From Steroidobacteraceae bacterium (GTDB lineage Bacteria > Pseudomonadota > Gammaproteobacteria > Steroidobacterales > Steroidobacteraceae), in assembly GCA_036786925.1 (NCBI GenBank), contig DAIQQI010000002.1, forward strand, positions 1-34,576: a stretch of DNA of 34,576 nucleotides, read 5' to 3'. The position numbers were made by a program, and so were the translations under genes. Positions 23,503 to 34,210 of this stretch are shown here, in pieces (within the stretch, counting starts at the first letter, position 1; each line of letters opens with the position of its first letter). A model generated the notes under the pieces. It was not told the origin of the DNA, made no database searches, and worked only from the letters and a program-made list of their open reading frames with translations.

Positions 23503-23615
23503 CGCGATCAGGTCCTTGTCTGCATTGCGGTGCCGCGGGGCGGCGCACATTGTAGCCCGCCGCGCGCAGTCGTTATTCTGCAGACTTACCGGTTGTCCTT
23601 TTGGCGGAGCAGCTT

Positions 23616-24548
23616 ATGTCGGATTCAATTTCGCGTCGCGGGGTGATAGTCGGTTCTGCCGCGGCAGGCCTGGCGGCGGCCGCAGCTTCAGCCGGCGCCA
23701 AGATACAACGCGGCACGCGTGTGCCGCTCGATCTCAGCAAACCCGCCGACAACGTCACCGCCTACCTCAAGATGCGCGCCAGCACCGTGACCCAGGACGT
23801 GTTCTTCTGGTTCACCGGGCGCCTCGATATTGCCGTGCCGGGTGAACCGGTGCGGCCCCTGATCAATGTCGAGAGCTGCATTTTACGCCGCACCGAGCTG
23901 GTCAGTCCCCTGCAATGGAATGTCATCGACTGGGAAGTGGCGCTGTACCGCAGTGCCGAGACCGGCGAGTATCTAACAGATGGCGATGAGATCCTGAATC
24001 CGCACACCGGCCGCAAGGTCAAGCCCCTTGCCTATCGCGAAGGCCCGGTCCGGTTTCGTTTCAGCGAGCAGGAGCCGCGCATCATCGGTTCTCGCGACGT
24101 GATGCCTAACACCGGCAAGCCCTTCAATTACCCCTGGCGCATCGTTGGCGATGACATCTGGATGACCAAGTCGAGCTACATCAAGGCGCCGAACTGGCTG
24201 GATCCGCGCGAGTGGCCGCTCGAATCATCCGGCAGAGATCTGATCGTCGCGACCCAGTCAACGCTGCGTTCGAAGTTGTCGGACATCGAAAACACCGCGG
24301 TCGCGAGCGCGCCCTGCGATTTCGCCTACACCGCCACCAGTTCCTGGCTTCCCTGGATGCAGATGGGGCCGACGCCGGGCTTCCTGGTGTGGGCGGAAGC
24401 GGGCAAGAAATTGTTTACGCTCGAACAAATAGCGCCCGCGCATCTGGCGCAGTTGCGCAAGGTGCATCCGTTGTGGTTCAACCGGCCCGAACCGTGGCCG
24501 GAATTCACCAACATGTACCTGCAGTACAAAGCGCGCAACGCGCGCTGA
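23616..24548 (+). CDS. DUF1838 family protein with TAT signal
   Basis: ORF 23601..24548. ATG 23616 has GGCGGAG upstream. It has a twin-arginine signal (SISRRGVIVGSAAAGLAAAAASAGA). The family call is from memory. Confidence 0.55.
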   Translation: MSDSISRRGVIVGSAAAGLAAAAASAGAKIQRGTRVPLDLSKPADNVTAYLKMRASTVTQDVFFWFTGRLDIAVPGEPVRPLINVESCILRRTELVSPLQWNVIDWEVALYRSAETGEYLTDGDEILNPHTGRKVKPLAYREGPVRFRFSEQEPRIIGSRDVMPNTGKPFNYPWRIVGDDIWMTKSSYIKAPNWLDPREWPLESSGRDLIVATQSTLRSKLSDIENTAVASAPCDFAYTATSSWLPWMQMGPTPGFLVWAEAGKKLFTLEQIAPAHLAQLRKVHPLWFNRPEPWPEFTNMYLQYKARNAR

Positions 24549-24554
24549 CGAACG

Positions 24555-25820
24555 TTACCTGGCGCGTGCGCCCGAGTCTTTCATGGATTCGAGACGCGCA
24601 AGGTCAACGCCATCGACGACGCCTTTGATTTGCTCGAAGCTGGCAGCGTCGCCCTCCGCCTTGACGATGAAGCGGTCGGCGACAAAGACCTCATACTCGC
24701 CACGCTTGTTGGCGCTGTCCCATTTCTCATGGAACCAGCGGTTGCCCGCGCGCTTGGTTCTCTCGAAGCCCTTGTCCGTTTCCGATTCCTGTTCACCCAT
24801 CGTGACCGCCGCGCCGGCTAACGCCAGGAAGCCGGACGCGCCGCCGGTGTCGACCACCGACAGCTCGATGCGGTTGCCGTCACCGGCATCGTAGCTTGCC
24901 TCGCCCTTGCCGATCTGCATGCCCATCGTCTCGTTGCGATTAACGGACATTGTGGTGCGCTTCATGCCGCCAATGCTCTCCGGCAGGAACGACTTGAGGT
25001 CGTCGGTCGGCAGCGCATCGTGAGGCACCGTGCCGGCCTTGCTGGCCAGCGCACCTAACGCCGCACTGACAGCAGCGGTGCCCACTGCGGCGGCGGCGGC
25101 GCCGGCGCGCGCCGCATCGGCGCTGGAGCCACCCGCGTTTGCGGCTGCTTCCGCTGCTTCAGTGGCACGTTCGGCCGCTGCAGTTGCCGCTTCAGCGGCC
25201 GCCTCGACCTGCGCGGATGCCCGGCCCGCCAGTGAGCGACCGGCGATCATCCCCGCGAGCGACGACGTGATTGAGCTGATGATGAACATCAGGACAATGG
25301 TCAGGATGATGACGACGGCGGTAAAGCCCGCGGCCTTGTCGGCCGGTATCTTCAGCGTGTGCTGGCAGCCGAGATAGAAGAGATAGACGGCGTAAACCAC
25401 GCCGGCAATCGCGATCAGCCAGCCGATGACCGGCACGATCGCCGCGATGGACGCGACCCAGGACGCGGTCCATGAATAGGCAACCGTCTTCAGTGCCTGC
25501 AGCGAATCCTTGCTGCCGCCAAAATTAGGCGCGAGCGTGGCGGCGAGCCAGGCACTGACGAACACCGCGGCGAACGTCAGGACAAAACTCAGGACCGCGG
25601 ACACCAGAAAGAAATTTGATCCGAAGCCAAAAGCGTTTGAAATCGAACCAAGAAATGCCCAGGCCAGCCAGCCGGCGAGCGCCGAGACGGCGGCTAACAA
25701 CAGCACGTGTCCCTGGTAGATGCTCGCCGCCGGCGCCGGGTCCGCAGCGATCGCAGGCCATTCGACCTTGGGCGTCAGCAGGATGTTCTTGATGCGCTCA
25801 ACGATTTTCGCGATATTCAT
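24555..25820 (-). CDS. Yip1-domain membrane protein with Ala-rich linker and C-terminal soluble domain
   Basis: ORF 24555..25907. ATG 25820 has AGGGGA upstream. It has an N-terminal Yip1/DUF1282-like region with about 5 TM helices, then a low-complexity Ala/Glu segment of about 60 aa, then an unassigned domain of about 170 aa. It is the last gene of the minus-strand operon. Confidence 0.6.
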   Translation of the reverse strand: MNIAKIVERIKNILLTPKVEWPAIAADPAPAASIYQGHVLLLAAVSALAGWLAWAFLGSISNAFGFGSNFFLVSAVLSFVLTFAAVFVSAWLAATLAPNFGGSKDSLQALKTVAYSWTASWVASIAAIVPVIGWLIAIAGVVYAVYLFYLGCQHTLKIPADKAAGFTAVVIILTIVLMFIISSITSSLAGMIAGRSLAGRASAQVEAAAEAATAAAERATEAAEAAANAGGSSADAARAGAAAAAVGTAAVSAALGALASKAGTVPHDALPTDDLKSFLPESIGGMKRTTMSVNRNETMGMQIGKGEASYDAGDGNRIELSVVDTGGASGFLALAGAAVTMGEQESETDKGFERTKRAGNRWFHEKWDSANKRGEYEVFVADRFIVKAEGDAASFEQIKGVVDGVDLARLESMKDSGARAR

Positions 25821-25845
25821 GAGAATCCCCTGTTTGTTATTTATT

Positions 25846-26907
25846 TCAGCGGCTGGCCGCCAGCCTGGCAGTTTCTTCCTGTATACGCTGTTCGAGCAGC
25901 TTTGCAAACGCGGGGTGCTCGGAAACCCCCTTTTCCTGGAACCGGTACTTGAGACCTAACAAATCTTGCTTGAGCTTGGCCTGCAGGCCGAAACTCGCGA
26001 TCACCGCAGGCACGACCAGGACATCGTAACCGCGTGCCTGGGCGTCGGTGATCATCTTGCGCAGCTTGCGGACATTGGCTGCGCGGATCGGCTTGAACGC
26101 GTCATCCTGCAGGTTGATCGCCTGCACCTCGGCAAAGCCGCCCTGGGCTTTCACTTTCACTGCGTGCGCATTGAGAAAGGCGAGATCGGGCACGTTGTCT
26201 TCGTAGTCCTCGGGACCATGCGCAACGATCATCACCGCTTCGCGTGCCGGATTTTTCGACAGCTCCCGCGCGTGATCCAGCAGCATCTGCGTAAACAGCG
26301 GGCTGTCATCAAACGTATGCGCCATGACCAGCTTGAGCTTGGTCCTGACCTTGGGCACCGACAGATACTCCGCCGCGGTGGGCCAGCCGAAGATGTACTC
26401 CCACTGGCGATAAATCGTGTTGTATTTCGAGACCAGCGGCGGCACGAGAATGATGGTCTTCGCGCCGGCCTTGGTCAGGTCGTCGACCGCCGACTGCAGC
26501 GGCTCCGAATGCGTCATCGCCATGCCGATACCGATGCTGGTCGGATACTTCGCGCCGATGGGCTCTACGGCGCGCTTGAAGATGCGGTCGCCGGTTTCGC
26601 CAACGCCGTGGGTCAGCACCAGCACGCCGACATTGCCGCGCAGTTGCGGGGCGCTGACGTTCCACTGGTAGTCCGGCCCCATGCCGCCCATGCTCATGTG
26701 AATTTCCATGTCGGTCATGGCGCGGTACTGAGGAATTGCCTTCTTGAGCGCGGCGATCAGTTCCGGCGTCATGTCGGCGTGGCTGTGCGCCATGATCATC
26801 TTGCGGCCGTCAGGCGTGCTGCCGCCGGCCGGCGGCGCGGGTGCGGCGCCTGCGGTTGCGGTCATCAACAGCACGATAGCTAACAAAAAAATCGTTACAG
26901 TCTTCAC
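25846..26907 (-). CDS. Signal-peptide-bearing double CbiX/CbiK-like (class II chelatase fold) protein
   Basis: 353 aa with a GTG start at 26907, overlapping the ATPase stop (GTGA). The signal peptide is MKTVTIFLLAIVLLMTATAGA. It has two chelatase-like halves, each with a beta-strand-HG motif (VLVLTHGVGE and VMIVAHGPED). Confidence 0.5.
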   Translation of the reverse strand: MKTVTIFLLAIVLLMTATAGAAPAPPAGGSTPDGRKMIMAHSHADMTPELIAALKKAIPQYRAMTDMEIHMSMGGMGPDYQWNVSAPQLRGNVGVLVLTHGVGETGDRIFKRAVEPIGAKYPTSIGIGMAMTHSEPLQSAVDDLTKAGAKTIILVPPLVSKYNTIYRQWEYIFGWPTAAEYLSVPKVRTKLKLVMAHTFDDSPLFTQMLLDHARELSKNPAREAVMIVAHGPEDYEDNVPDLAFLNAHAVKVKAQGGFAEVQAINLQDDAFKPIRAANVRKLRKMITDAQARGYDVLVVPAVIASFGLQAKLKQDLLGLKYRFQEKGVSEHPAFAKLLEQRIQEETARLAASR

Positions 26908-27590
26908 GTGGGCGCTCCTTCACTGACAACCCGGCCATCGACCAGCTTCACGACCCGGTCCACGACCGACACCATGCTGGCGTCATGCGTCACCATCACC
27001 GTGGCGACCTTGTGCGCGTGGCACTGCTGCGCCAGCAGCTCGACGATTTCGCGGCCGCGCCCCTGGTCCAGCATCGAGGTGGGCTCGTCCACCAGCAGCA
27101 GCGCCGGGTTGCCCATCAGCGCGCGGGCAATGCCGACACGCTGGCGCTCGCCACCCGACAGCTGTGCCGGCTTGCGAGTGGCGCGGTTCTCCATGCCAAC
27201 CTCGGCTAACAGACGCAGCGCCTCAGTGCGCGCCTTGCCGTGCGTGCCTTCGCCGTTCAGGTGCGCTACCAGCAGCAGCTGGTCGAGCGCGGTCAGCGAC
27301 GGCACGAGGTTCGACTGCTGAAACACGAAGCCGATGCGTTGCCGGCGGATCCGCGCCAGCTCGGAGTCGCTCAGATCGCCGAGGTTCACGCCACCCACGG
27401 TGACGCTGCCACTGCTGGCGCGCCGCAACCCGCCGCAGATCGCCAGCAGGCTCGACTTGCCGGCGCCGGACGGCCCCATGATCGCGACCATTTCGCCGGC
27501 CGAGACGTGGATATTCACGTTGTTGAGTATCGTCGCCTGTGCCTCGCCGTCGCCTAACAACAGCGAGATGTTCTGCGCCGCGAGCGTCAT
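26904..27590 (-). CDS. ABC transporter ATP-binding protein (MacB/LolD/FtsE type)
   Basis: ORF 26904..28172, but the real start is ATG 27590, which overlaps the permease stop (ATGA). It has Walker A (GPSGAGKSS), the signature LSGGERQR, and Walker B (LLLVDEPT). Confidence 0.9.
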   Translation of the reverse strand: MTLAAQNISLLLGDGEAQATILNNVNIHVSAGEMVAIMGPSGAGKSSLLAICGGLRRASSGSVTVGGVNLGDLSDSELARIRRQRIGFVFQQSNLVPSLTALDQLLLVAHLNGEGTHGKARTEALRLLAEVGMENRATRKPAQLSGGERQRVGIARALMGNPALLLVDEPTSMLDQGRGREIVELLAQQCHAHKVATVMVTHDASMVSVVDRVVKLVDGRVVSEGAPT

Positions 27591-28723
27591 CGGTCTCTCC
27601 CGAGCGCGATGATCGGCTCGATCTTGACGATGCGCCGCAGCGCGAACATCGCGCCGGCCAGGCCGGCGCCGATCAGCAGCAGCGAGCTGCCGACGACATT
27701 GCCGGTCGTGAGCTCGAACACCGAGCCGCGCGCCTCGAATGCGCTGGTGGTCCCGAAGGCCGCGAGCACGCCGATCCCGGTTGCGAACACCAGCACCAGC
27801 AGGACCTGGCTGAGCGCATCCCTGACCAGGTAGCCGTTGTCGGCGCCGAGCGCCTTGACCAGCCCGATCTCGGCGGTGCGCTGGATGGTCCAGATGGAAA
27901 AGAACGCACCTAACACGACTACGCAGGTCGCGATCAGGAAGAATTGCATCAGCCGCACGGTGAAGATTTCCGCGCTGTAGCCCGAGGTGCCGTCGTAGGA
28001 CTGCTCCTTGGTCATGGTCTTCGTGCCGATCTCCCGGTCGTGCGCCTTGATATCGACGCTGGCGTCCGGGTCGATCGCCAGCGCAATCGTGGTGGCGGCG
28101 GTGAAGATCGCCTCCGGCAGCGTATCGCCCGGCGGCGCGCCACCGGGGGGGCCGTAATTGGCCTCCTGCCATTTGCGCAACGGGACATAGGCGACGGGCG
28201 CGTGGCTGACCGCGACAGCCTCGGTGATGCCCACGACCTTGAACTCTGTCAGCACGCGATCGATCGTGATCGTGTCGCCGATCTTGACGTGCTTGTCCAG
28301 CGCGATCTTGCGTGAGATGACCATCGCGTTGGGCGCGGCCGAGAGGCCCTGGCCTTCAACAACCCTGGGTTCCGCAAATGAGCCTGGCACGACCCCCCAG
28401 AACGCGATATCGACCGGCGCGCCCTGCGCATCACGCGCATTCGCCAGCGAGTGGCCGATCGGCGTTGCCTTGACGCCGGGCACACCCGCCCATTTTTCCC
28501 AGGTCTCCTTGTCCAGCATGCTGTTCTGGTAGTCGGGCCGCGTGGAGTTCTCGAACGCCATGTGGGTCGCGGGCAGCTGCTGCAGCGCGGACACGCAGTC
28601 CTTGATGAGGCCGAATATCAGGCCGCCTAACACGACCACCAGGAACGCCACCAGTGTGACCACCAGGGCCATCAGGCCGAAGCGGCCCTTGGCATGCAGC
28701 ATGTCGCGCCACGCAAGGAACAT
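27587..28723 (-). CDS. ABC transporter permease, FtsX/MacB-like
   Basis: 378 aa. It has TM1, a periplasmic domain of about 200 aa, and three C-terminal TM helices (the FtsX domain layout). Its start overlaps the upstream stop by 1 nt (TGATG). Confidence 0.85.
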   Translation of the reverse strand: MFLAWRDMLHAKGRFGLMALVVTLVAFLVVVLGGLIFGLIKDCVSALQQLPATHMAFENSTRPDYQNSMLDKETWEKWAGVPGVKATPIGHSLANARDAQGAPVDIAFWGVVPGSFAEPRVVEGQGLSAAPNAMVISRKIALDKHVKIGDTITIDRVLTEFKVVGITEAVAVSHAPVAYVPLRKWQEANYGPPGGAPPGDTLPEAIFTAATTIALAIDPDASVDIKAHDREIGTKTMTKEQSYDGTSGYSAEIFTVRLMQFFLIATCVVVLGAFFSIWTIQRTAEIGLVKALGADNGYLVRDALSQVLLVLVFATGIGVLAAFGTTSAFEARGSVFELTTGNVVGSSLLLIGAGLAGAMFALRRIVKIEPIIALGRDR

Positions 28724-29466
28724 CAGAATTTCTCCAGCACAGAGCCGCAGCCCTGGATCTTGTCCGGGATTCCTGAGCGCCGCAAGGCGTCCCAGTAGGT
28801 AATGGCATTGATAGCTAACACCGGTTTGCCGAACCAGAGTTCGGCCTCTGCGGCGAGCCGTATTGCAGCGAGGTTGGTGCCCACCTGGACCAGCGCGTCG
28901 ACATCATCGCCGTTCAGCGCGCGCAGCGCGTCGATGACCTGCTGCTCGGTGGTATGCGCGATCAGCGTTGGCGAGGCGCACTTGAGGCCGGTCAGGCGCT
29001 TGACCGCGAATCCCGCTTCTTCGAAGTAGGTGCGCACCTGTTCATCGCCGCGCGGCTGGTGCGGCGTCAGCACCGCGATGCGCGTGGCGCCCAGCAGCTT
29101 GAGCGCCGCGCGCGTCGCAGTGGAACCCATGGAGATGCCGACGCCGGCGCGTTCTGTCAGCTCCTTCTGCAATTCGTCGGCGGCCTTGGCGCCGCCCCAG
29201 AACGCCTCGAGCGCCACGCCCATGATCACGTGCGTGGGCTGACAGGTCACGATCTGGTCGATGCCTGCGCGCATGCCATCGCGCATCAGCTGCACATGTT
29301 CCATGAAAGCCTGCTCGGTGGTGAGCGGACGTTCCCTGATGGTGATGCGCCCGGTGTGATTGGTGACGCCCCGGGGGCGCAGCATTTCGCATTCCGGCTG
29401 GCACGAGGTGTTGGTCGACGGCACGACGATGGCGATGCGAGCGCGATATCCGAGTTGATCAGTCAT
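28723..29466 (-). CDS. Asp/Glu/hydantoin racemase superfamily protein (maleate isomerase / arylmalonate decarboxylase-like)
   Basis: 247 aa. It has the N-terminal IAIVVPSTNT block and VAVLTP-type and DALV....N blocks typical of the family. By hand alignment, both positions that hold the catalytic Cys in maleate isomerase are non-Cys here. Its start overlaps the SDR stop (ATGA). Confidence 0.65.
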   Translation of the reverse strand: MTDQLGYRARIAIVVPSTNTSCQPECEMLRPRGVTNHTGRITIRERPLTTEQAFMEHVQLMRDGMRAGIDQIVTCQPTHVIMGVALEAFWGGAKAADELQKELTERAGVGISMGSTATRAALKLLGATRIAVLTPHQPRGDEQVRTYFEEAGFAVKRLTGLKCASPTLIAHTTEQQVIDALRALNGDDVDALVQVGTNLAAIRLAAEAELWFGKPVLAINAITYWDALRRSGIPDKIQGCGSVLEKF

Positions 29467-30251
29467 GGCGTCTTGACGCTGCCTCCGTCCAGTGTGATCG
29501 AGGTGCCGGTGGTGTGGCCGGCGAGTTCCGATGCCAGGAACAACACCTGCGCCGCCACCTGTTCGGCGCTGCCCAGTTTGCGCAGCGCAGATTTCGCGAG
29601 AAACGGCGCCTCGACATCAGCCACGGTACGCTTCTCCTGCGCAGCGATGTCAGCCATCTGCTGGTCCCAGCGGCTCGAGCGGACCGGTCCGGGGTTCACG
29701 GCGTTGATGCAAATCCCCTGCGGCCCCACTTCCTCCGCCAGTCCACGCACGATGGCTAACAAGGCCGAATTCGCCGCCGCCCCCGGCAGCATCCTGGGCT
29801 CCGGCAATTTCGCCGAGTTGCCGACGATCACCACAATGCGCCCGGCGCGACGCGCCTGCATGCCGGGCAGCGCAGCCCGCAGCAGCCGAATCGTTCCGAA
29901 CAACTTCAATTCGAGATTACGCTTCCAGTCGGCGTCGGATAAGTCCGTAAAAATACCGCCCTGTGCATTGCCGGCTGCGCACACCAGCACATCGATGGGT
30001 CCGCCTTGTCGCACGGCGCCGGCAATCGCCGCATCGGTGCTGGCCGCGTCGGTCAGGTCAGATTGAATGCCGTCGACGACCTGGCCGCCGGCGCTGGTCA
30101 GTTCGCGCACCAGCGCCGCGAGTTTTTCCAGCGACCGGCCTAACAAACTGAGGCGCGCGCCTTCGGTCGCGAACGCGCGGGCGCAGGCTGCGCCCAGGCC
30201 GCCGGTCGCGCCGGCGATCAGCACATGCCGGTCGCGTAATTTAAGATCCAT
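29463..30251 (-). CDS. SDR family oxidoreductase
   Basis: ORF 29463..30353. ATG 30251 has AAGGAG upstream. It has the cofactor motif GATGGLG, an NAG motif, and a classical SDR length of 262 aa. Confidence 0.85.
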   Translation of the reverse strand: MDLKLRDRHVLIAGATGGLGAACARAFATEGARLSLLGRSLEKLAALVRELTSAGGQVVDGIQSDLTDAASTDAAIAGAVRQGGPIDVLVCAAGNAQGGIFTDLSDADWKRNLELKLFGTIRLLRAALPGMQARRAGRIVVIVGNSAKLPEPRMLPGAAANSALLAIVRGLAEEVGPQGICINAVNPGPVRSSRWDQQMADIAAQEKRTVADVEAPFLAKSALRKLGSAEQVAAQVLFLASELAGHTTGTSITLDGGSVKTP

Positions 30252-30265
30252 GCTCAGGGGCTCCT

Positions 30266-31279
30266 TCAGCGGCTGCGGGCGAGGGCGGCGCCGGCGCCTA
30301 ACGCGCGCAGCTTGGCGCGCGCCAGGTCGGCGGGCAGCGGCGCCATGCCGCAATTGGTACAGGGTACAAGTCTTTCACGATCCACGTGTTTGAGCGCGGC
30401 GCCGATATTGGCCGCAACCTCGGCCGCGGTTTCCAGCTTTCCCGGCAGGACTTCGACCGCGCCGACCAGCAGCTCCTTGTCTTTCAGCAGCCGCAGCACC
30501 TCATGCGGCACTTTGGAGCCGGCGAACTCGACCGATACCGCCTGCACGCTGCTCGCGTTGATCCAGGGAAAAATGGCCTCGTATTGCCGCCAGCTGTCGC
30601 CCAGGGTGCTCTTCCACTTGATGTTAGCTTCGATGCCGTAGCCGTAGCAGATATGCACGACCGTCTTCGCCTTCAGGCCGCGCATCGCGCGCTCCAGCGC
30701 CGGCAGGCCCCAGTCGCGCACCTCGTCGATGAAAACGTTGAAGGCCGGTTCGTCGAACTGGATCACGTCCGCGCCCGCGGCCTCGATCTGCAGCGCTTCC
30801 TGGTTGAGCAGCTCCGCAAACTTCATGGCCATGTCGGCGCGCGAGCTGTAGTAACTGTTAGCAATCGTGTCGCAGATCGTCATCGGGCCGGGCAGGGTGA
30901 TCTTCAGTTGCCGCGCTGTCTGTGCCCGCATATAGGCGGCATCGGCGACGTGCACCGGCGACGGGCGTGCCAGCGCGGCAACCACCGTGGGCACTTCCGC
31001 CTCGTAACGGTTGTTGCGAATGCCCATGCGCGTCTTGCGGTTCCAGTCGATGCCCTGGATGTTCTCGAGGAAACCGTGCACGAAGTGCACGCGAAACTGC
31101 TCGCCATCGCCCACGATGTCGATCCCGGCGGCTTCCTGTTCGCGCAGCCACTCGAGTGCGGCTCGTTGCTTGCCCTGCTGCAACGCGTCGCCGGCGAGAC
31201 GCCAGGGCGCCCAGATCTTTTCGGGCTCGGCCAGCCAGTCCGGTTTTGGAAGGCTGCCGACGGTGGTGGTTTTGAGCAC
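30266..31279 (-). CDS. Single-barrel cobalamin-independent methionine synthase family protein ('core' MetE-like)
   Basis: 337 aa with a GTG start at 31279. TTTVGSLPKP, GDGEQ.R, DEPA, HICYG and NCGM are blocks of the MetE C-terminal barrel type, including the Zn-ligand contexts. It is the first gene of the operon. Confidence 0.75.
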   Translation of the reverse strand: MLKTTTVGSLPKPDWLAEPEKIWAPWRLAGDALQQGKQRAALEWLREQEAAGIDIVGDGEQFRVHFVHGFLENIQGIDWNRKTRMGIRNNRYEAEVPTVVAALARPSPVHVADAAYMRAQTARQLKITLPGPMTICDTIANSYYSSRADMAMKFAELLNQEALQIEAAGADVIQFDEPAFNVFIDEVRDWGLPALERAMRGLKAKTVVHICYGYGIEANIKWKSTLGDSWRQYEAIFPWINASSVQAVSVEFAGSKVPHEVLRLLKDKELLVGAVEVLPGKLETAAEVAANIGAALKHVDRERLVPCTNCGMAPLPADLARAKLRALGAGAALARSR

Positions 31280-31431
31280 GCAATACGATCCGGTGAGCGA
31301 CGCGAACAGCGAACGCGAATCGTAAACGACTGGGGCGGAGGTACCCGACCGCAGCTTGGTTGGCAGAGAGAGGATTGGTTGGGCGCCGCCCGGGAGTCCG
31401 TTCCCGAAGTCAGCGCGTCATCAGGCCATCC

Positions 31432-31458
31432 GTGGCCAAGTGGCCGGTCCTTGGCCAC
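31432..31458. promoter_or_regulatory. Perfect 9-bp inverted repeat GTGGCCAAG-N9-CTTGGCCAC at the start of the operon leader
   Basis: Read directly from the sequence. It lies just downstream of the predicted operon promoter. It could be a 5' RNA stem-loop or a protein operator. Confidence 0.4.
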
Positions 31459-31468
31459 CTGTGGGTGA

Positions 31469-31497
31469 ATATTTAGCCAGCCGACTTGCATTGTCAA
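31469..31497 (-). promoter_or_regulatory. Candidate sigma70-type promoter of the metE-like operon
   Basis: On the minus strand there is a perfect TTGACA (31497-31492), then 16-17 nt, then the A/T-rich TAAATAT (31475-31469). This implies a leader of about 180 nt before GTG 31279. Confidence 0.4.
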
Positions 31498-31515
31498 GCT
31501 TTTGTACAGTATAAA
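31486..31515 (+). promoter_or_regulatory. Candidate promoter of the carH-like gene
   Basis: TTGCAT (31486-31491), 18 nt, TATAAA (31510-31515). It lies in the only strongly AT-rich stretch of the intergenic region. Confidence 0.3.
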
Positions 31516-31535
31516 ACTAAATATAAGGTGTACAA
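31502..31535. promoter_or_regulatory. Inverted repeat TTGTACA-N20-TGTACAA (candidate operator)
   Basis: Two perfect 7-bp arms at 31502-31508 and 31529-31535. They overlap the carH-like promoter and RBS, immediately upstream of the operon -35. Confidence 0.35.
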
Positions 31536-31536
31536 C

Positions 31537-32436
31537 ATGGCTGAATTTTCGATAAAGGCCACCGCCAAGGCGACTGGCCTGACCGTCGAGACCCTCAGGG
31601 CCTGGGAACGGCGTTACGAGGCCGTACTGCCCAGTCGTGATGTCGCGGGCAGGCGCGGCTACTCGTCTGCTGACATCGCGCGCCTGCGGTTGCTGCGGTC
31701 CGCAACCGAGTTGGGGCACCCCATTTCGAAGGTCGCAAAGATGCCGCCGGATGAATTGGCGAAGCTGGTCAGCGATGCCGGAGGTTTGGCGCGGATTACC
31801 GCGCGCGGTCAGAGCTTCGTGCAACGCGCGCTCGATGCCGCGGAGCACTCGGATTCGATCGGCGTCGAAGAGACACTGATGTCGGCGATGGCAGTGCTGC
31901 CGCCGCACGAAGTAGCGGGCAGCGTGATCACTCCGCTGCTGATCGAAGTTGGCGATCGCTGGCACCGCGGCCAGTTGCGTATCTCCCAGGAACACATGGT
32001 CACCGACATCGTACGGCGCCTGGTGACCAATGCGTCGCGCAGCTATTTCATCGCGGAAAACGCGCCTTGCCTGATGCTGACGACCTTGAGCGGCGAGCGT
32101 CACGAGCTGGGGCTCATGCTGTGCCTGTGGCTTGCTGCAGCGCGCCGCTGCCGTACCCATTACCTCGGCCCGGACACCCCCGTGCCTGACATCGTGGAGT
32201 ACGCGCGTGACGTCGAGGCGGACGCGGTTCTGCTGTCGATGGTCATGTCCGAGATGGACGTCCCGGCCAGGACGCAGCTCGGCCTGCTGGCCGCGCAATT
32301 GCAGCCGAATACCGAGATCTGGGTTGGCGGTCGGGCCGCGCAGACCATGCGCGAAGACCAGGTGCCGCTGGGCGTGGTCTTGCTGCCGTCGCTAACAGAC
32401 TACGAGCAGCGGCTCGACACGCTTATGGTTAAGTAG
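31537..32436 (+). CDS. CarH/LitR-type MerR family regulator with cobalamin-binding domain
   Basis: ORF 31486..32436. ATG 31537 has AAGGTG upstream. It has an N-terminal MerR HTH (ATAKATGLTVETLRAWERRY). The helical cap carries Wx9EH (W-HRGQLRISQ-EH). The Rossmann B12 domain has GERHELG (ExHxxG), LLSMV (SxL) and VGG. Confidence 0.75.
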   Translation: MAEFSIKATAKATGLTVETLRAWERRYEAVLPSRDVAGRRGYSSADIARLRLLRSATELGHPISKVAKMPPDELAKLVSDAGGLARITARGQSFVQRALDAAEHSDSIGVEETLMSAMAVLPPHEVAGSVITPLLIEVGDRWHRGQLRISQEHMVTDIVRRLVTNASRSYFIAENAPCLMLTTLSGERHELGLMLCLWLAAARRCRTHYLGPDTPVPDIVEYARDVEADAVLLSMVMSEMDVPARTQLGLLAAQLQPNTEIWVGGRAAQTMREDQVPLGVVLLPSLTDYEQRLDTLMVK

Positions 32437-32512: not shown

Positions 32513-34210
32513 ATGGCACGCAGCAGCAAGATTGCGCAACTCGCAATAGCCGGATTTTTGGCCTTGGTCGCCGGTTGTGGCGGCGGTGGCGGCGCGAGTT
32601 CGCCACCACCCCCGGTACCGCCGCCGCCGATCAGCAAGATCGAGGCGTATCGTTTTCTCAATCAGGCCACTTTCGGCGCAACCGAAGCCGAGGCCCAGCG
32701 CCTGATCGCGTTAGGTGACAGCACCAACAGCTACTCGCGCTGGCTGGACGAACAATTCGCCAAGGCGCCTTCGACCCAGTTGCCGACCGTAGCCGCAGCG
32801 GTACCCAACCCGATTCCGGTCGGCTTCAATATCGGCTCGCTGCAGGCGCAACGGGTCGAGGCCTGGTTCCAGAATTCCCTGAATGGCGACGACCAGTTGC
32901 GCCAGCGCGTGGCCTTCGCGCTGTCCGAGATCATGGTTGTGTCGCAGGTCGGTGCGCTGGCGAATTTCCCGTTGTCGCTGGCTGATTATTACGACATGTT
33001 AGCGCGCGACGCCTTCGGCGATTATCGCAAGCTGCTCGAAGACGTGACGCTGCACGTGTCGATGGGCATTTATCTGTCGATGCTGGGCAACCAGAAGCCG
33101 AATCCGACGCTCAATATCCGGCCCGACGAAAACTACGCGCGCGAACTGATGCAGCTGTTCAGTATCGGCCTGGTCGAACTCAACACCGACGGCACGCCGC
33201 GCCTCGTGAACAGCCAGGCGGTTTCAACCTATGACCAGTCGATCATCGAAGGCTTTGCTAACGTGTACACGGGCTGGCGCTACGCCGGTGGCACATCGTT
33301 CGCCAATGCGGGGCGCGCCACGTTGACCAACCAGGTGCAGCCGATGCAGGCCTACGCGGAGCAGCACTCCACCGGTACCAAGAAGCTGTTGAGTTACGCC
33401 GGCGCCGCGGTGACGACAATTCCTGCGGGGCAGACGCCGGCCCAGGATCTGGCCAATGCGCTCGACAACATCTTCAATCACCCCAATGTCGGGCCGTTCA
33501 TCTCGAAACAGCTGATCCAGAAACTGGTGACCAGCAATCCAAGCCCGGCGTACGTCGCACGCGTTGCCGCCGTCGTCAACAGCGACAGCCAGGGCCGCCG
33601 CGGCAACCTGCAATCGGTCATCCGCGCCATTTTGCTGGATAGCGACGCGCGCTCGGCGCCAACTGCGCAGACCGCGGGTAAGATCAAGGAGCCGCTGCTG
33701 CGGCTGACCCAGCTGTGGCGCGCCTACGGCGCGCGCGCCGCGAGCGGCAAATATACGGCTGCGGCGACCGGCGGTCCGTCGGCGACGTTCGCGCAGGGGC
33801 CGCTGCAATCCGGCTCCGTGTTCAATTTCTTCAGTCCGTTTTATGCGCCCACCGGCGAGATTGCCAACCAGAACCTGGTCGCGCCCGAGATGCAGCTGGC
33901 GACTGAGTACAACAACACGCAGTTCATCAATTTCTTCTGGGTGCAGGCTATCGCCCGCACCACGGCGCAGACCGGCCTGGGAGCGGATGTGGTGGTCATC
34001 GACACCACGCAGGAACAGGCGGTCGCCAATGATTCCGAAGCCCTGGTGAACCGGGTCGCGGAAAAATTGTTAGGCGGGCAGATATCCGCTGAACTGAAAG
34101 CAAGCGTCAAGACCCAGGTCGATCGGACCGCGACCACCGTGCCTAACACCCGGGTGGCCGACGCGATATACCTGATCTCTACAGCGCCTGAATTCGTGCT
34201 GCAGCGCTAA
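32513..34210 (+). CDS. DUF1800 domain lipoprotein
   Basis: 565 aa. GGAGG lies upstream. It has a lipobox (LVAGCGG) and a Pro-rich linker. The FLNQATFG and NENYARELMELFT-like (NYARELMQLFSIG) blocks are typical of DUF1800. Confidence 0.8.
   Translation: MARSSKIAQLAIAGFLALVAGCGGGGGASSPPPPVPPPPISKIEAYRFLNQATFGATEAEAQRLIALGDSTNSYSRWLDEQFAKAPSTQLPTVAAAVPNPIPVGFNIGSLQAQRVEAWFQNSLNGDDQLRQRVAFALSEIMVVSQVGALANFPLSLADYYDMLARDAFGDYRKLLEDVTLHVSMGIYLSMLGNQKPNPTLNIRPDENYARELMQLFSIGLVELNTDGTPRLVNSQAVSTYDQSIIEGFANVYTGWRYAGGTSFANAGRATLTNQVQPMQAYAEQHSTGTKKLLSYAGAAVTTIPAGQTPAQDLANALDNIFNHPNVGPFISKQLIQKLVTSNPSPAYVARVAAVVNSDSQGRRGNLQSVIRAILLDSDARSAPTAQTAGKIKEPLLRLTQLWRAYGARAASGKYTAAATGGPSATFAQGPLQSGSVFNFFSPFYAPTGEIANQNLVAPEMQLATEYNNTQFINFFWVQAIARTTAQTGLGADVVVIDTTQEQAVANDSEALVNRVAEKLLGGQISAELKASVKTQVDRTATTVPNTRVADAIYLISTAPEFVLQR

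Follow-up and report, generated by a model that had tools for sequence, protein, structure and literature searches.

Three independently conserved gene groups probably came together recently in a packed seven-gene unit of a Steroidobacteraceae genome

We analysed a stretch of DNA of 34,576 nucleotides (hereafter the window), positions 1 to 34,576 of contig DAIQQI010000002.1 from the Steroidobacteraceae assembly GCA_036786925.1. Seven open reading frames (ORFs), numbered here g1 to g7, follow one another on its minus strand between positions 24555 and 31279. They encode a MesD-like core (single-barrel) methionine synthase homologue (g1, 30266..31279), a short-chain dehydrogenase/reductase (SDR; g2, 29463..30251), a protein with the Asp/Glu-racemase or maleate-isomerase fold that is without both catalytic cysteines (g3, 28723..29466), an HrtB-like type VII (MacB-fold) ATP-binding cassette (ABC) permease (g4, 27587..28723), an HrtA-like ABC ATPase (g5, 26904..27590), an exported two-domain protein with a predicted class II chelatase fold (g6, 25846..26907) and, at the operon end, a Yip1-domain membrane protein (g7, 24555..25820). 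A CarH-like regulator of the MerR family (31537..32436) is encoded divergently from g1 on the plus strand, and the predicted promoter and operator of the g1 operon (31468..31534, minus strand) lie between the two. A reading made from the sequence alone (hereafter the sequence-only reading) had placed the seven genes at these coordinates and proposed that they form a single module; the ORFs are present there and domain searches agree. The explanation that we favour, with somewhat better than even confidence, is that the seven genes make up a single packed unit, probably transcribed as a whole, in which three parts that are conserved independently of one another were brought side by side recently and in this clade only: g1 to g3 with the CarH-like gene and the operator (part A), g4 to g6 (part B) and g7 (part C).

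The genes leave little room between them. Fourteen nucleotides separate g1 from g2 and 25 separate g6 from g7, while the remaining junctions are overlaps of 4 nt between g2 and g3 (ATGA), 1 nt between g3 and g4 (TGATG), 4 nt between g4 and g5 (ATGA) and 4 nt between g5 and g6 (GTGA). All six measurements reproduce those of the sequence-only reading. Its start choices for g2, g5 and g7, which are shorter than the maximal ORFs, also stand, as they match the gene lengths in a 95% identical relative (L087; 262, 228 and 421 aa) and the Pfam coverage and, for g7, full-length alignments of homologues. The ATG of the regulator gene is at 31537 and not at 31534. Between 23400 and 32600 the sole sigma-70-like promoter match is the one upstream of g1 on the minus strand, and the nine terminator-like matches in this region are no excess over the 6.9 +/- 2.7 found in shuffled sequences. 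Since the only promoter match lies upstream of g1 and terminators are not in excess, the sequence is compatible with one transcript, and the seven genes are probably co-transcribed. A leader of about 190 nt (31280-31467, minus strand) runs from the predicted promoter to the GTG start of g1 and sits where relatives have a fasciclin gene. We considered a riboswitch upstream of g1 and rejected it: no RNA family matched at its Rfam gathering score across the whole window, a search of 31150-31650 gave one chance-level match only (E 9.5), and the 188-nt leader folds like its shuffled counterparts, with no fold signal (z -0.14).

The case for three separate parts comes from the gene neighbourhoods of homologues. 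Searches with g6 yielded 114 homologue clusters, all from metagenomes or metagenome-assembled genomes (MAGs). A scan of one genome per species found at least 141 relatives, of which the best 80 loci, again all from MAGs, were kept and their neighbours counted by tblastn. The MAGs that bear these 80 loci are labelled mostly Gammaproteobacteria or Chromatiales, and some Rhodospirillaceae or Alphaproteobacteria. At 64 of the 80 loci, the g6 homologue is immediately preceded on its own strand by genes for an FtsX permease and an ABC ATPase; two further loci cut by contig ends and one with another gene order bring the pump-linked total to 67/80. A TetR gene stands between the ABC gene and g6 in 41/80, and in one locus (L055) the FtsX-ABC-g6 trio stands alone, with 4-nt overlaps and unrelated neighbours. 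Homologues of g1, g2, g3 and g7 and a CarH-like gene accompany g6 at a single locus among the 80 (L007). That locus comes from an 81% identical relative, and its gene order and identities match those of the ENA locus L001.

A similar picture was obtained from the other end of the unit. The best 120 clusters listed for each of g1 and g3 are all at least 78% identical (at least 79% for g3) and come from MAGs named Steroidobacteraceae, Nevskiaceae or Gammaproteobacteria. All seven genes recur in the 95% relative, L087. The relatives at 78-83% identity (L088/L089, L090, L091 and L092) have DUF1501, DUF1800 and CarH-like genes and, divergently from these, genes for fasciclin, a MesD-like protein, an SDR, an Amdase-like protein and a FAD_binding_3 monooxygenase, and they have no pump, g6 or g7. 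In L091 and L092 arylesterase/SGL and amine oxidase genes come directly after the monooxygenase gene; in L088 they come only after other genes, and neither was seen in L090. The window keeps flanking arylesterase, amine oxidase and KASIII genes and is without the monooxygenase and fasciclin genes, of which tblastn found no remnants in the window, the g1 leader included. Comparison with the 78-83% relatives thus indicates that g4 to g7, together with a DUF1838 gene convergent to g7, stand in this clade where the relatives have the monooxygenase gene.

The last gene, g7, has a history of its own. Its Yip1 domain (residues 12-180) is followed by an Ala-rich linker and a C-terminal domain of roughly 155 aa, and the C-terminal part has no Pfam match. 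The C-terminal ~190 residues (24555-25130, minus strand) are conserved in hundreds of family members, with P280, D324 and E365 invariant in the alignment. The family is widespread and aligns along the full length of the protein, with 278 representatives at E<=1e-30. A locus scan with an eight-sequence alignment gave 79 metagenome loci with g7 homologues of 37-43% identity, and these never lie beside FtsX, ABC or g6 genes; recurrent neighbours are Wzy_C and glycosyltransferase genes (lipopolysaccharide-core-type genes) and those for YceI, an ELM1-like protein and GlnE. Given the lack of linkage in 79 loci, we rejected g7 as a part of the pump module. Judged by its homologues, it is a lineage-specific passenger from an independent family unrelated to the pump.

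All seven genes are therefore found together only in loci where g6 is at least 81% identical (L001/L007 and L087), while the other parts are missing from 79 of the 80 g6 loci, from four distinct g1/g3 contexts and from the 79 g7 loci. The packed junctions are identical in the window, L087 and L001, lineages whose proteins have diverged to 69-95% identity; as the same junctions are kept in three diverged lineages, co-expression may be useful. This retention, together with the tight overlapping junctions (the one between g3 and g4 included) and the single upstream promoter and operator, could be taken to mean that the genes form one functional pathway, in which g1 to g3 make or modify a small molecule or tetrapyrrole and g4 and g5 export it to g6 and g7 under light or B12 control. 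We hold such a pathway to be very unlikely, because the set is not co-conserved outside close relatives and each part is conserved alone elsewhere. HrtBA-type pumps, moreover, draw their substrate from the outer membrane leaflet and not from the cytoplasm (PMC9271180), and g1 keeps every homocysteine/methionine-binding residue, which argues for methionine rather than tetrapyrrole chemistry. The sequence-only reading had itself made the single module depend on co-conservation in other genomes, and the surveys with g6, with g1 and g3 and with g7 found no such co-conservation beyond close relatives. Its link of the genes to tetrapyrroles holds up for g4 to g6, through their likeness to HrtB and HrtA, the haem-ligand residues and the chelatase fold, and falls away for the remaining genes.

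Turning to part A, the divergent regulator combines MerR (MerR_1), B12-binding_2 and B12-binding domains and is thus of the B12-sensor type that had been proposed for it. Its best NCBIfam match is CarH, at 122.8 bits and under the cutoff of 400. The motifs Wx9EH and D/ExHxxG define adenosylcobalamin (AdoCbl)-binding CarH (PMC9304148), and both can be read in the regulator, as W-HRGQLRISQ-EH and ERHELG. The promoter predicted for g1 consists of a -35 box TTGACA (31497-31492), an 18-nt spacer and a -10 box AATATT (31473-31468), a 10/12 match. The operator is a series of TnnACA motifs, namely TGTACA, a degenerate TATTTA, a second TGTACA and the -35 box TTGACA itself, at 11-15-11 spacing; it abuts the start codon of the carH-like gene, and its repeats overlap the -35 box. 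The arrangement TGTACA-N20-TGTACA-N5-TTGACA is unique in the window, with 0 occurrences expected by chance, and all seven loci examined retain both the repeats and the TTGACA box. The CarH-like gene is likewise kept beside the g1 homologues in L001, L087, L088, L090, L091 and L092.

In these respects the system resembles the CarH/LitR photoreceptor repressors, which share the MerR helix-turn-helix, a four-helix bundle with Wx9EH, a Rossmann B12 domain with ExHxxG and TnnACA repeats that overlap the -35 box of the target promoter. It differs from them in that the regulator falls far under the NCBIfam CarH equivalog cutoff, that the target operon is not a carotenoid operon, and that the repeats, at 11-15-11 spacing, are not strictly tandem, whereas the CarH operator is made of 11-bp direct repeats. 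We found no precedent in the literature searched for CarH/LitR control of a methionine synthase. A DUF1800 gene (32513-34210, plus strand), which in relatives has a DUF1501 gene as its pair, invariably comes after the carH-like gene in the same orientation and may share a transcript with it; in L087 the DUF1800 gene is split into three ORFs, which suggests frameshifts or assembly errors there.

The protein encoded by g1 has the Pfam domain Meth_synt_2, passes the NCBIfam equivalog model NF006589 'methionine synthase' (494 bits against a cutoff of 392), and has 3RPD as its best PDB match (E 1.4e-119), a protein identified by Price et al. as the MesD of Shewanella (PMC7857596). In BLASTP, g1 and 3RPD are 53% identical at 380 bits, which falls slightly below the published MesD criterion of 390 bits and ~55% identity, our comparison being with the 3RPD protein and the criterion being defined on ACIAD3523 (PMC7857596). 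By the residue assignments of the same study, g1 keeps the homocysteine/methionine ligands (Ser in GSLP, Glu in DGEQ and Asp in QFDEP), the MesD-specific Tyr (Tyr226; ICYGYG) and the Zn ligands (VHIC and CTNCG), and NCBI names its relatives 'methionine synthase'. MesD requires MesX (DUF1852) and oxygen, and needs neither folate nor cobalamin (PMC7857596). The idea that g1 might take its methyl group from methylcobalamin is consequently weak and unlikely, since g1 groups with a family that does not need cobalamin. We regard g1 as probably MesD-like and cobalamin-independent, which makes B12-sparing regulation the likelier link between it and the B12 sensor.

The two genes that follow are its regular partners. 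The SDR encoded by g2 has adh_short and adh_short_C2 domains and no NCBIfam model above cutoff, and in the relatives L087-L092 its homologue always sits between those of g1 and g3. The product of g3 matches the Pfam family Amdase (PF17645, 56.9 bits; Asp/Glu racemase fold) and, best in the PDB, maleate isomerase (2XED/2XEC); when aligned to the maleate isomerase of N. farcinica, it has Val at Cys76 and Gly at Cys194. The locus departs from the MesD/MesX system, which g1 resembles as a single-barrel protein with the ligands described above: no DUF1852 gene adjoins g1, and the genes that follow it encode an SDR, an isomerase-fold protein without the catalytic cysteines and, in relatives, a FAD monooxygenase. 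No MesX turned up among the scanned ORFs of the window, nor in L087-L092 at distances of up to 8 kb. The flavin monooxygenase of the relatives could replace the oxygen-dependent MesX step; its gene is absent from the window.

These departures bear on an alternative for part A, in which it is no methionine synthase system but part of a catabolic or protective pathway induced by light, with the MesD-like protein adding an alkyl group to another thiol or removing one from it. That would fit the lack of a MesX gene nearby, a score for g1 slightly below the MesD criterion (PMC7857596), the conserved synteny in relatives with genes for oxidoreductases and hydrolases (FAD monooxygenase, arylesterase and amine oxidase) and the altered catalytic site of g3. 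We nevertheless consider this pathway doubtful, if conceivable, because g1 retains all residues that contact homocysteine or methionine and the MesD-specific Tyr as well, and because it passes the NCBIfam equivalog model. The most likely function of g1 to g3, as their sequences suggest, is methionine synthesis that is repressed by B12 or derepressed by light. In this scheme, part A would be the ancestral content of the locus. With B12 present and in the dark, the AdoCbl-loaded repressor would shut the g1 operon off, and light or a lack of B12 would turn this B12-independent, methionine-synthase-like operon on, so that CarH-type control would do the job of a B12 riboswitch on metE.

Part B begins with the pump. 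g4 contains MacB_PCD and FtsX domains and g5 an ABC_tran domain. The only PDB sequence match of g4 is HrtB (7W78_B; E 5.6e-31), along its full length (1-376 vs 1-342), and the same search returned no match to MacB, LolC/E, FtsX or BceB. g5 finds HrtA as its best PDB match (7W7A/7W78 chain A, 186.6 bits), ahead of MJ0796, LolD and MacB. HrtBA takes haem laterally from the outer membrane leaflet and releases it upon ATP binding; in HrtB, Glu219 is the axial ligand of the haem and His163, in the extracellular domain, stacks on the porphyrin (PMC9271180). In g4, E252 corresponds to Glu219 and H174 to His163, L35 and L39 are identical, and V256 stands at the position of Leu223. Neither the Glu nor the His varies among the 65 permeases linked to a g6 homologue, and Leu39, Leu35 and Pro301 are present in 63/66, 55/66 and 56/66 aligned permease sequences, respectively. 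The pair is thus similar to the HrtBA of C. diphtheriae (7W78-7W7D) and the HrtAB of S. aureus in its permease and ATPase composition, in its MacB/type VII fold, in the full-length similarity of both subunits and in the retention of Glu219, His163 and the Leu35 and Leu39 of transmembrane helix 1. It is unlike them in its host, a Gram-negative gammaproteobacterium, and in being paired with an exported chelatase-fold protein, which HrtBA is without. A Gram-negative HrtB with a chelatase partner was not found described in the literature searched.

That partner, g6, has an N-terminus that on inspection looks like a signal peptide. An AlphaFold (AF2) model built from 109 sequences reached a predicted local distance difference test (pLDDT) score of 92.4, and its top Foldseek match was SirB (E 2e-7; target-normalised template-modelling score 0.68-0.70), followed by DR2241, the periplasmic CbiK(P) of D. 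vulgaris, CbiK, HemH and CpfC. The model thus predicts two Rossmann-like alpha/beta domains that form a cleft, that is, a class II chelatase fold, and so bears out at the level of the fold the sequence-only description of an exported, double CbiX/CbiK-like protein. At the level of sequence the relationship is faint: PF01903 was matched by 1 of the 114 homologues, and the family profile reached only E 0.13 in the PDB, to CbiX(S). In that marginal profile match, H100 aligns with the His of the GHGS motif of CbiX(S) and the second His (HGIH) with non-His residues. The C-terminal domain carries a motif H230-G231-P232, in which G231 is invariant and H230 and P232 nearly so; also invariant are H100-G101, M129, M131, D268, D269, R275 and N278, and M132 nearly so. 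Extracytoplasmic class II chelatases that bind metalloporphyrins include the D. vulgaris CbiK(P) and the P. gingivalis FetB, the latter of which inserts Co or Mn into porphyrin (PMC13065792). g6 is like CbiK(P) (2XVX/2XVZ) and FetB/IhtB in being exported and in its two-domain class II chelatase fold. It differs in its identity to them of only 10-17%, in an extra N-terminal helical extension of ~60 residues and in its partner, an HrtBA-like exporter, as opposed to the TonB/FecCDE-type importer of the Iht system.

At least three His residues stand right after the signal peptide in 97/109 members of the g6 family. Most homologues have a His-rich stretch there (AQ-E/D-HxHxH), sometimes with MDHSxMD repeats, which points to a tail that captures metal, like those of some CbiX proteins; the clade of the window has lost the stretch and keeps HSH only. 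Second copies of g6 without a pump occur in L071, L081, L082 and L086 (around 10000), after an alpha/beta-hydrolase (esterase) gene and in L086 also after a UbiD-like gene; the presence of these copies in the same MAGs implies that the family includes pump-independent paralogues.

Such features allow a different view of part B, in which g4 and g5 serve general efflux or sensing of drugs or toxic compounds (as MacB, BceAB or FtsEX types do), g6 is a Cu/Ni/Co-binding protein or a periplasmic enzyme regulated by the pump, and no haem system exists. Type VII ABC systems such as FtsEX do work by mechanotransmission onto periplasmic partners, and the TetR gene of many relatives is of a kind typical of drug efflux operons; the His-rich and MDHSxMD-like tails of most g6 homologues with their invariant Met, and the paralogues that lie without a pump beside esterase, UbiD or DUF1838 genes, would fit as well. 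This view is nonetheless unlikely, given that g4 matches only HrtB in the PDB, that the Glu ligand of haem and the stacking His are invariant in 65/65 permeases, and that g6 shares its predicted fold with tetrapyrrole chelatases, among them CbiK(P), which binds haem in the periplasm. Extrusion of haem or a metalloporphyrin to a periplasmic acceptor is, on the sequence evidence, the most likely function of g4 to g6. By analogy with HrtBA, the g4/g5 pump would use its Glu/His site to draw haem, or a metalloporphyrin related to it, out of the inner membrane's outer leaflet and pass it to g6, which would act as a periplasmic acceptor, chaperone or (de)metalating enzyme; we infer both the substrate and the direction of transfer from this likeness. 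As a self-contained module, part B would have been inserted after g3 in place of the FAD-monooxygenase gene, would have lost its TetR gene in this clade, and would now rely on the CarH-controlled promoter, while g7 would be an unrelated Yip1-family gene acquired at the operon end.

Several observations weigh against this account of a juxtaposition of a haem-handling module with a methionine-synthesis operon. A fused arrangement that is kept across ~80-95% identical lineages could mean selection for co-expression, and with it a functional link between the parts; an internal promoter within g3 or g4 is possible. Lacking MesX, g1 may be inactive alone as a methionine synthase or may use another substrate. 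On the side of the pump, Pro301 of HrtB is missing in the window's own g4, and the locus has none of the haem sensors known for HrtBA-type systems (HssRS, ChrSA or HrtR/FhtR) and no adjacent two-component system; relatives have an unrelated TetR instead, and in the window the only visible promoter carries a predicted CarH-type operator. When the TetR proteins of relatives were searched against the PDB, they gave generic TetR matches (Mce3R, KstR and others) and no HrtR, and we rejected them as HrtR-like haem sensors for want of specific similarity. Finally, g6, unlike CbiK(P) and FetB, has no Pfam match at E<=0.01, CbiX and CbiK included, and keeps one of the two canonical His residues of the N-domain; it may not be catalytic, and its family's His/Met-rich tails and invariant Met would fit Cu, Ni or Co binding too.

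Two sets of neighbouring genes complete the locus. Between 19797 and 23550 on the minus strand lie genes for an arylesterase/SGL protein, a 331-aa multi-pass membrane protein without a Pfam match and a flavin amine oxidase with a twin-arginine translocation (Tat) signal. They are syntenic with the genes after the MesD-like operon in relatives, where they may be included in the CarH-controlled unit. The DUF1838 gene (23601-24548, plus strand), which also encodes a Tat signal, runs towards g7, and the two stop codons are separated by 6 nt. In ~17/80 of the loci with a g6 homologue a DUF1838 gene is found within 10 kb (for example, L055 16086-17905); the linkage is loose, and only in L080 (8883-9875) is the gene immediately adjacent, upstream of a g6 paralogue that has no pump. 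DUF1838 was rejected as a component of the module, as its distance varies and unrelated genes (Mur ligase, peptidase S46, GPP34, DUF2891 and UbiD) lie between.

Although the reading of the seven genes as one pathway dissolves, two of the parts merit following up, namely the pump-chelatase module and the MesX-less MesD-like operon. To our knowledge, HrtBA is known only from Gram-positives, in which the haem it extrudes simply leaves the cell. The HrtBA-like pump with its periplasmic chelatase-fold partner appears from its gene neighbourhoods to be a separately conserved Gram-negative module, one that is undescribed in the literature searched: at least 141 stretches of DNA from uncultured Gammaproteobacteria, and from some MAGs with an Alphaproteobacteria label, encode a g6 relative, and 67 of the best 80 loci are pump-linked. 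If the proposed function is correct, an acceptor in the periplasm dedicated to the pump would reveal how a diderm copes with haem extrusion, and the extracytoplasmic chelatase fold would gain a defined partner. For the MesD family, a MesX-less synthase-like protein that travels with an SDR, a Cys-less isomerase-fold protein and a CarH-type sensor bears on the source of the MesD methyl group, and CarH-type control, if real, would achieve with a protein what the B12 riboswitch does on metE. It is tempting to join the two, as a Gram-negative HrtBA-type system with a periplasmic chelatase-fold acceptor (perhaps metalating or demetalating) and a MesX-independent MesD-type system, both under an AdoCbl photoreceptor. 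That this whole combination is right seems to us rather improbable. In it, light would trigger the CarH-controlled pump to remove photosensitising porphyrins or haem from the membrane, and such removal is, as speculation, a benefit that co-expression of the parts might bring to this clade.

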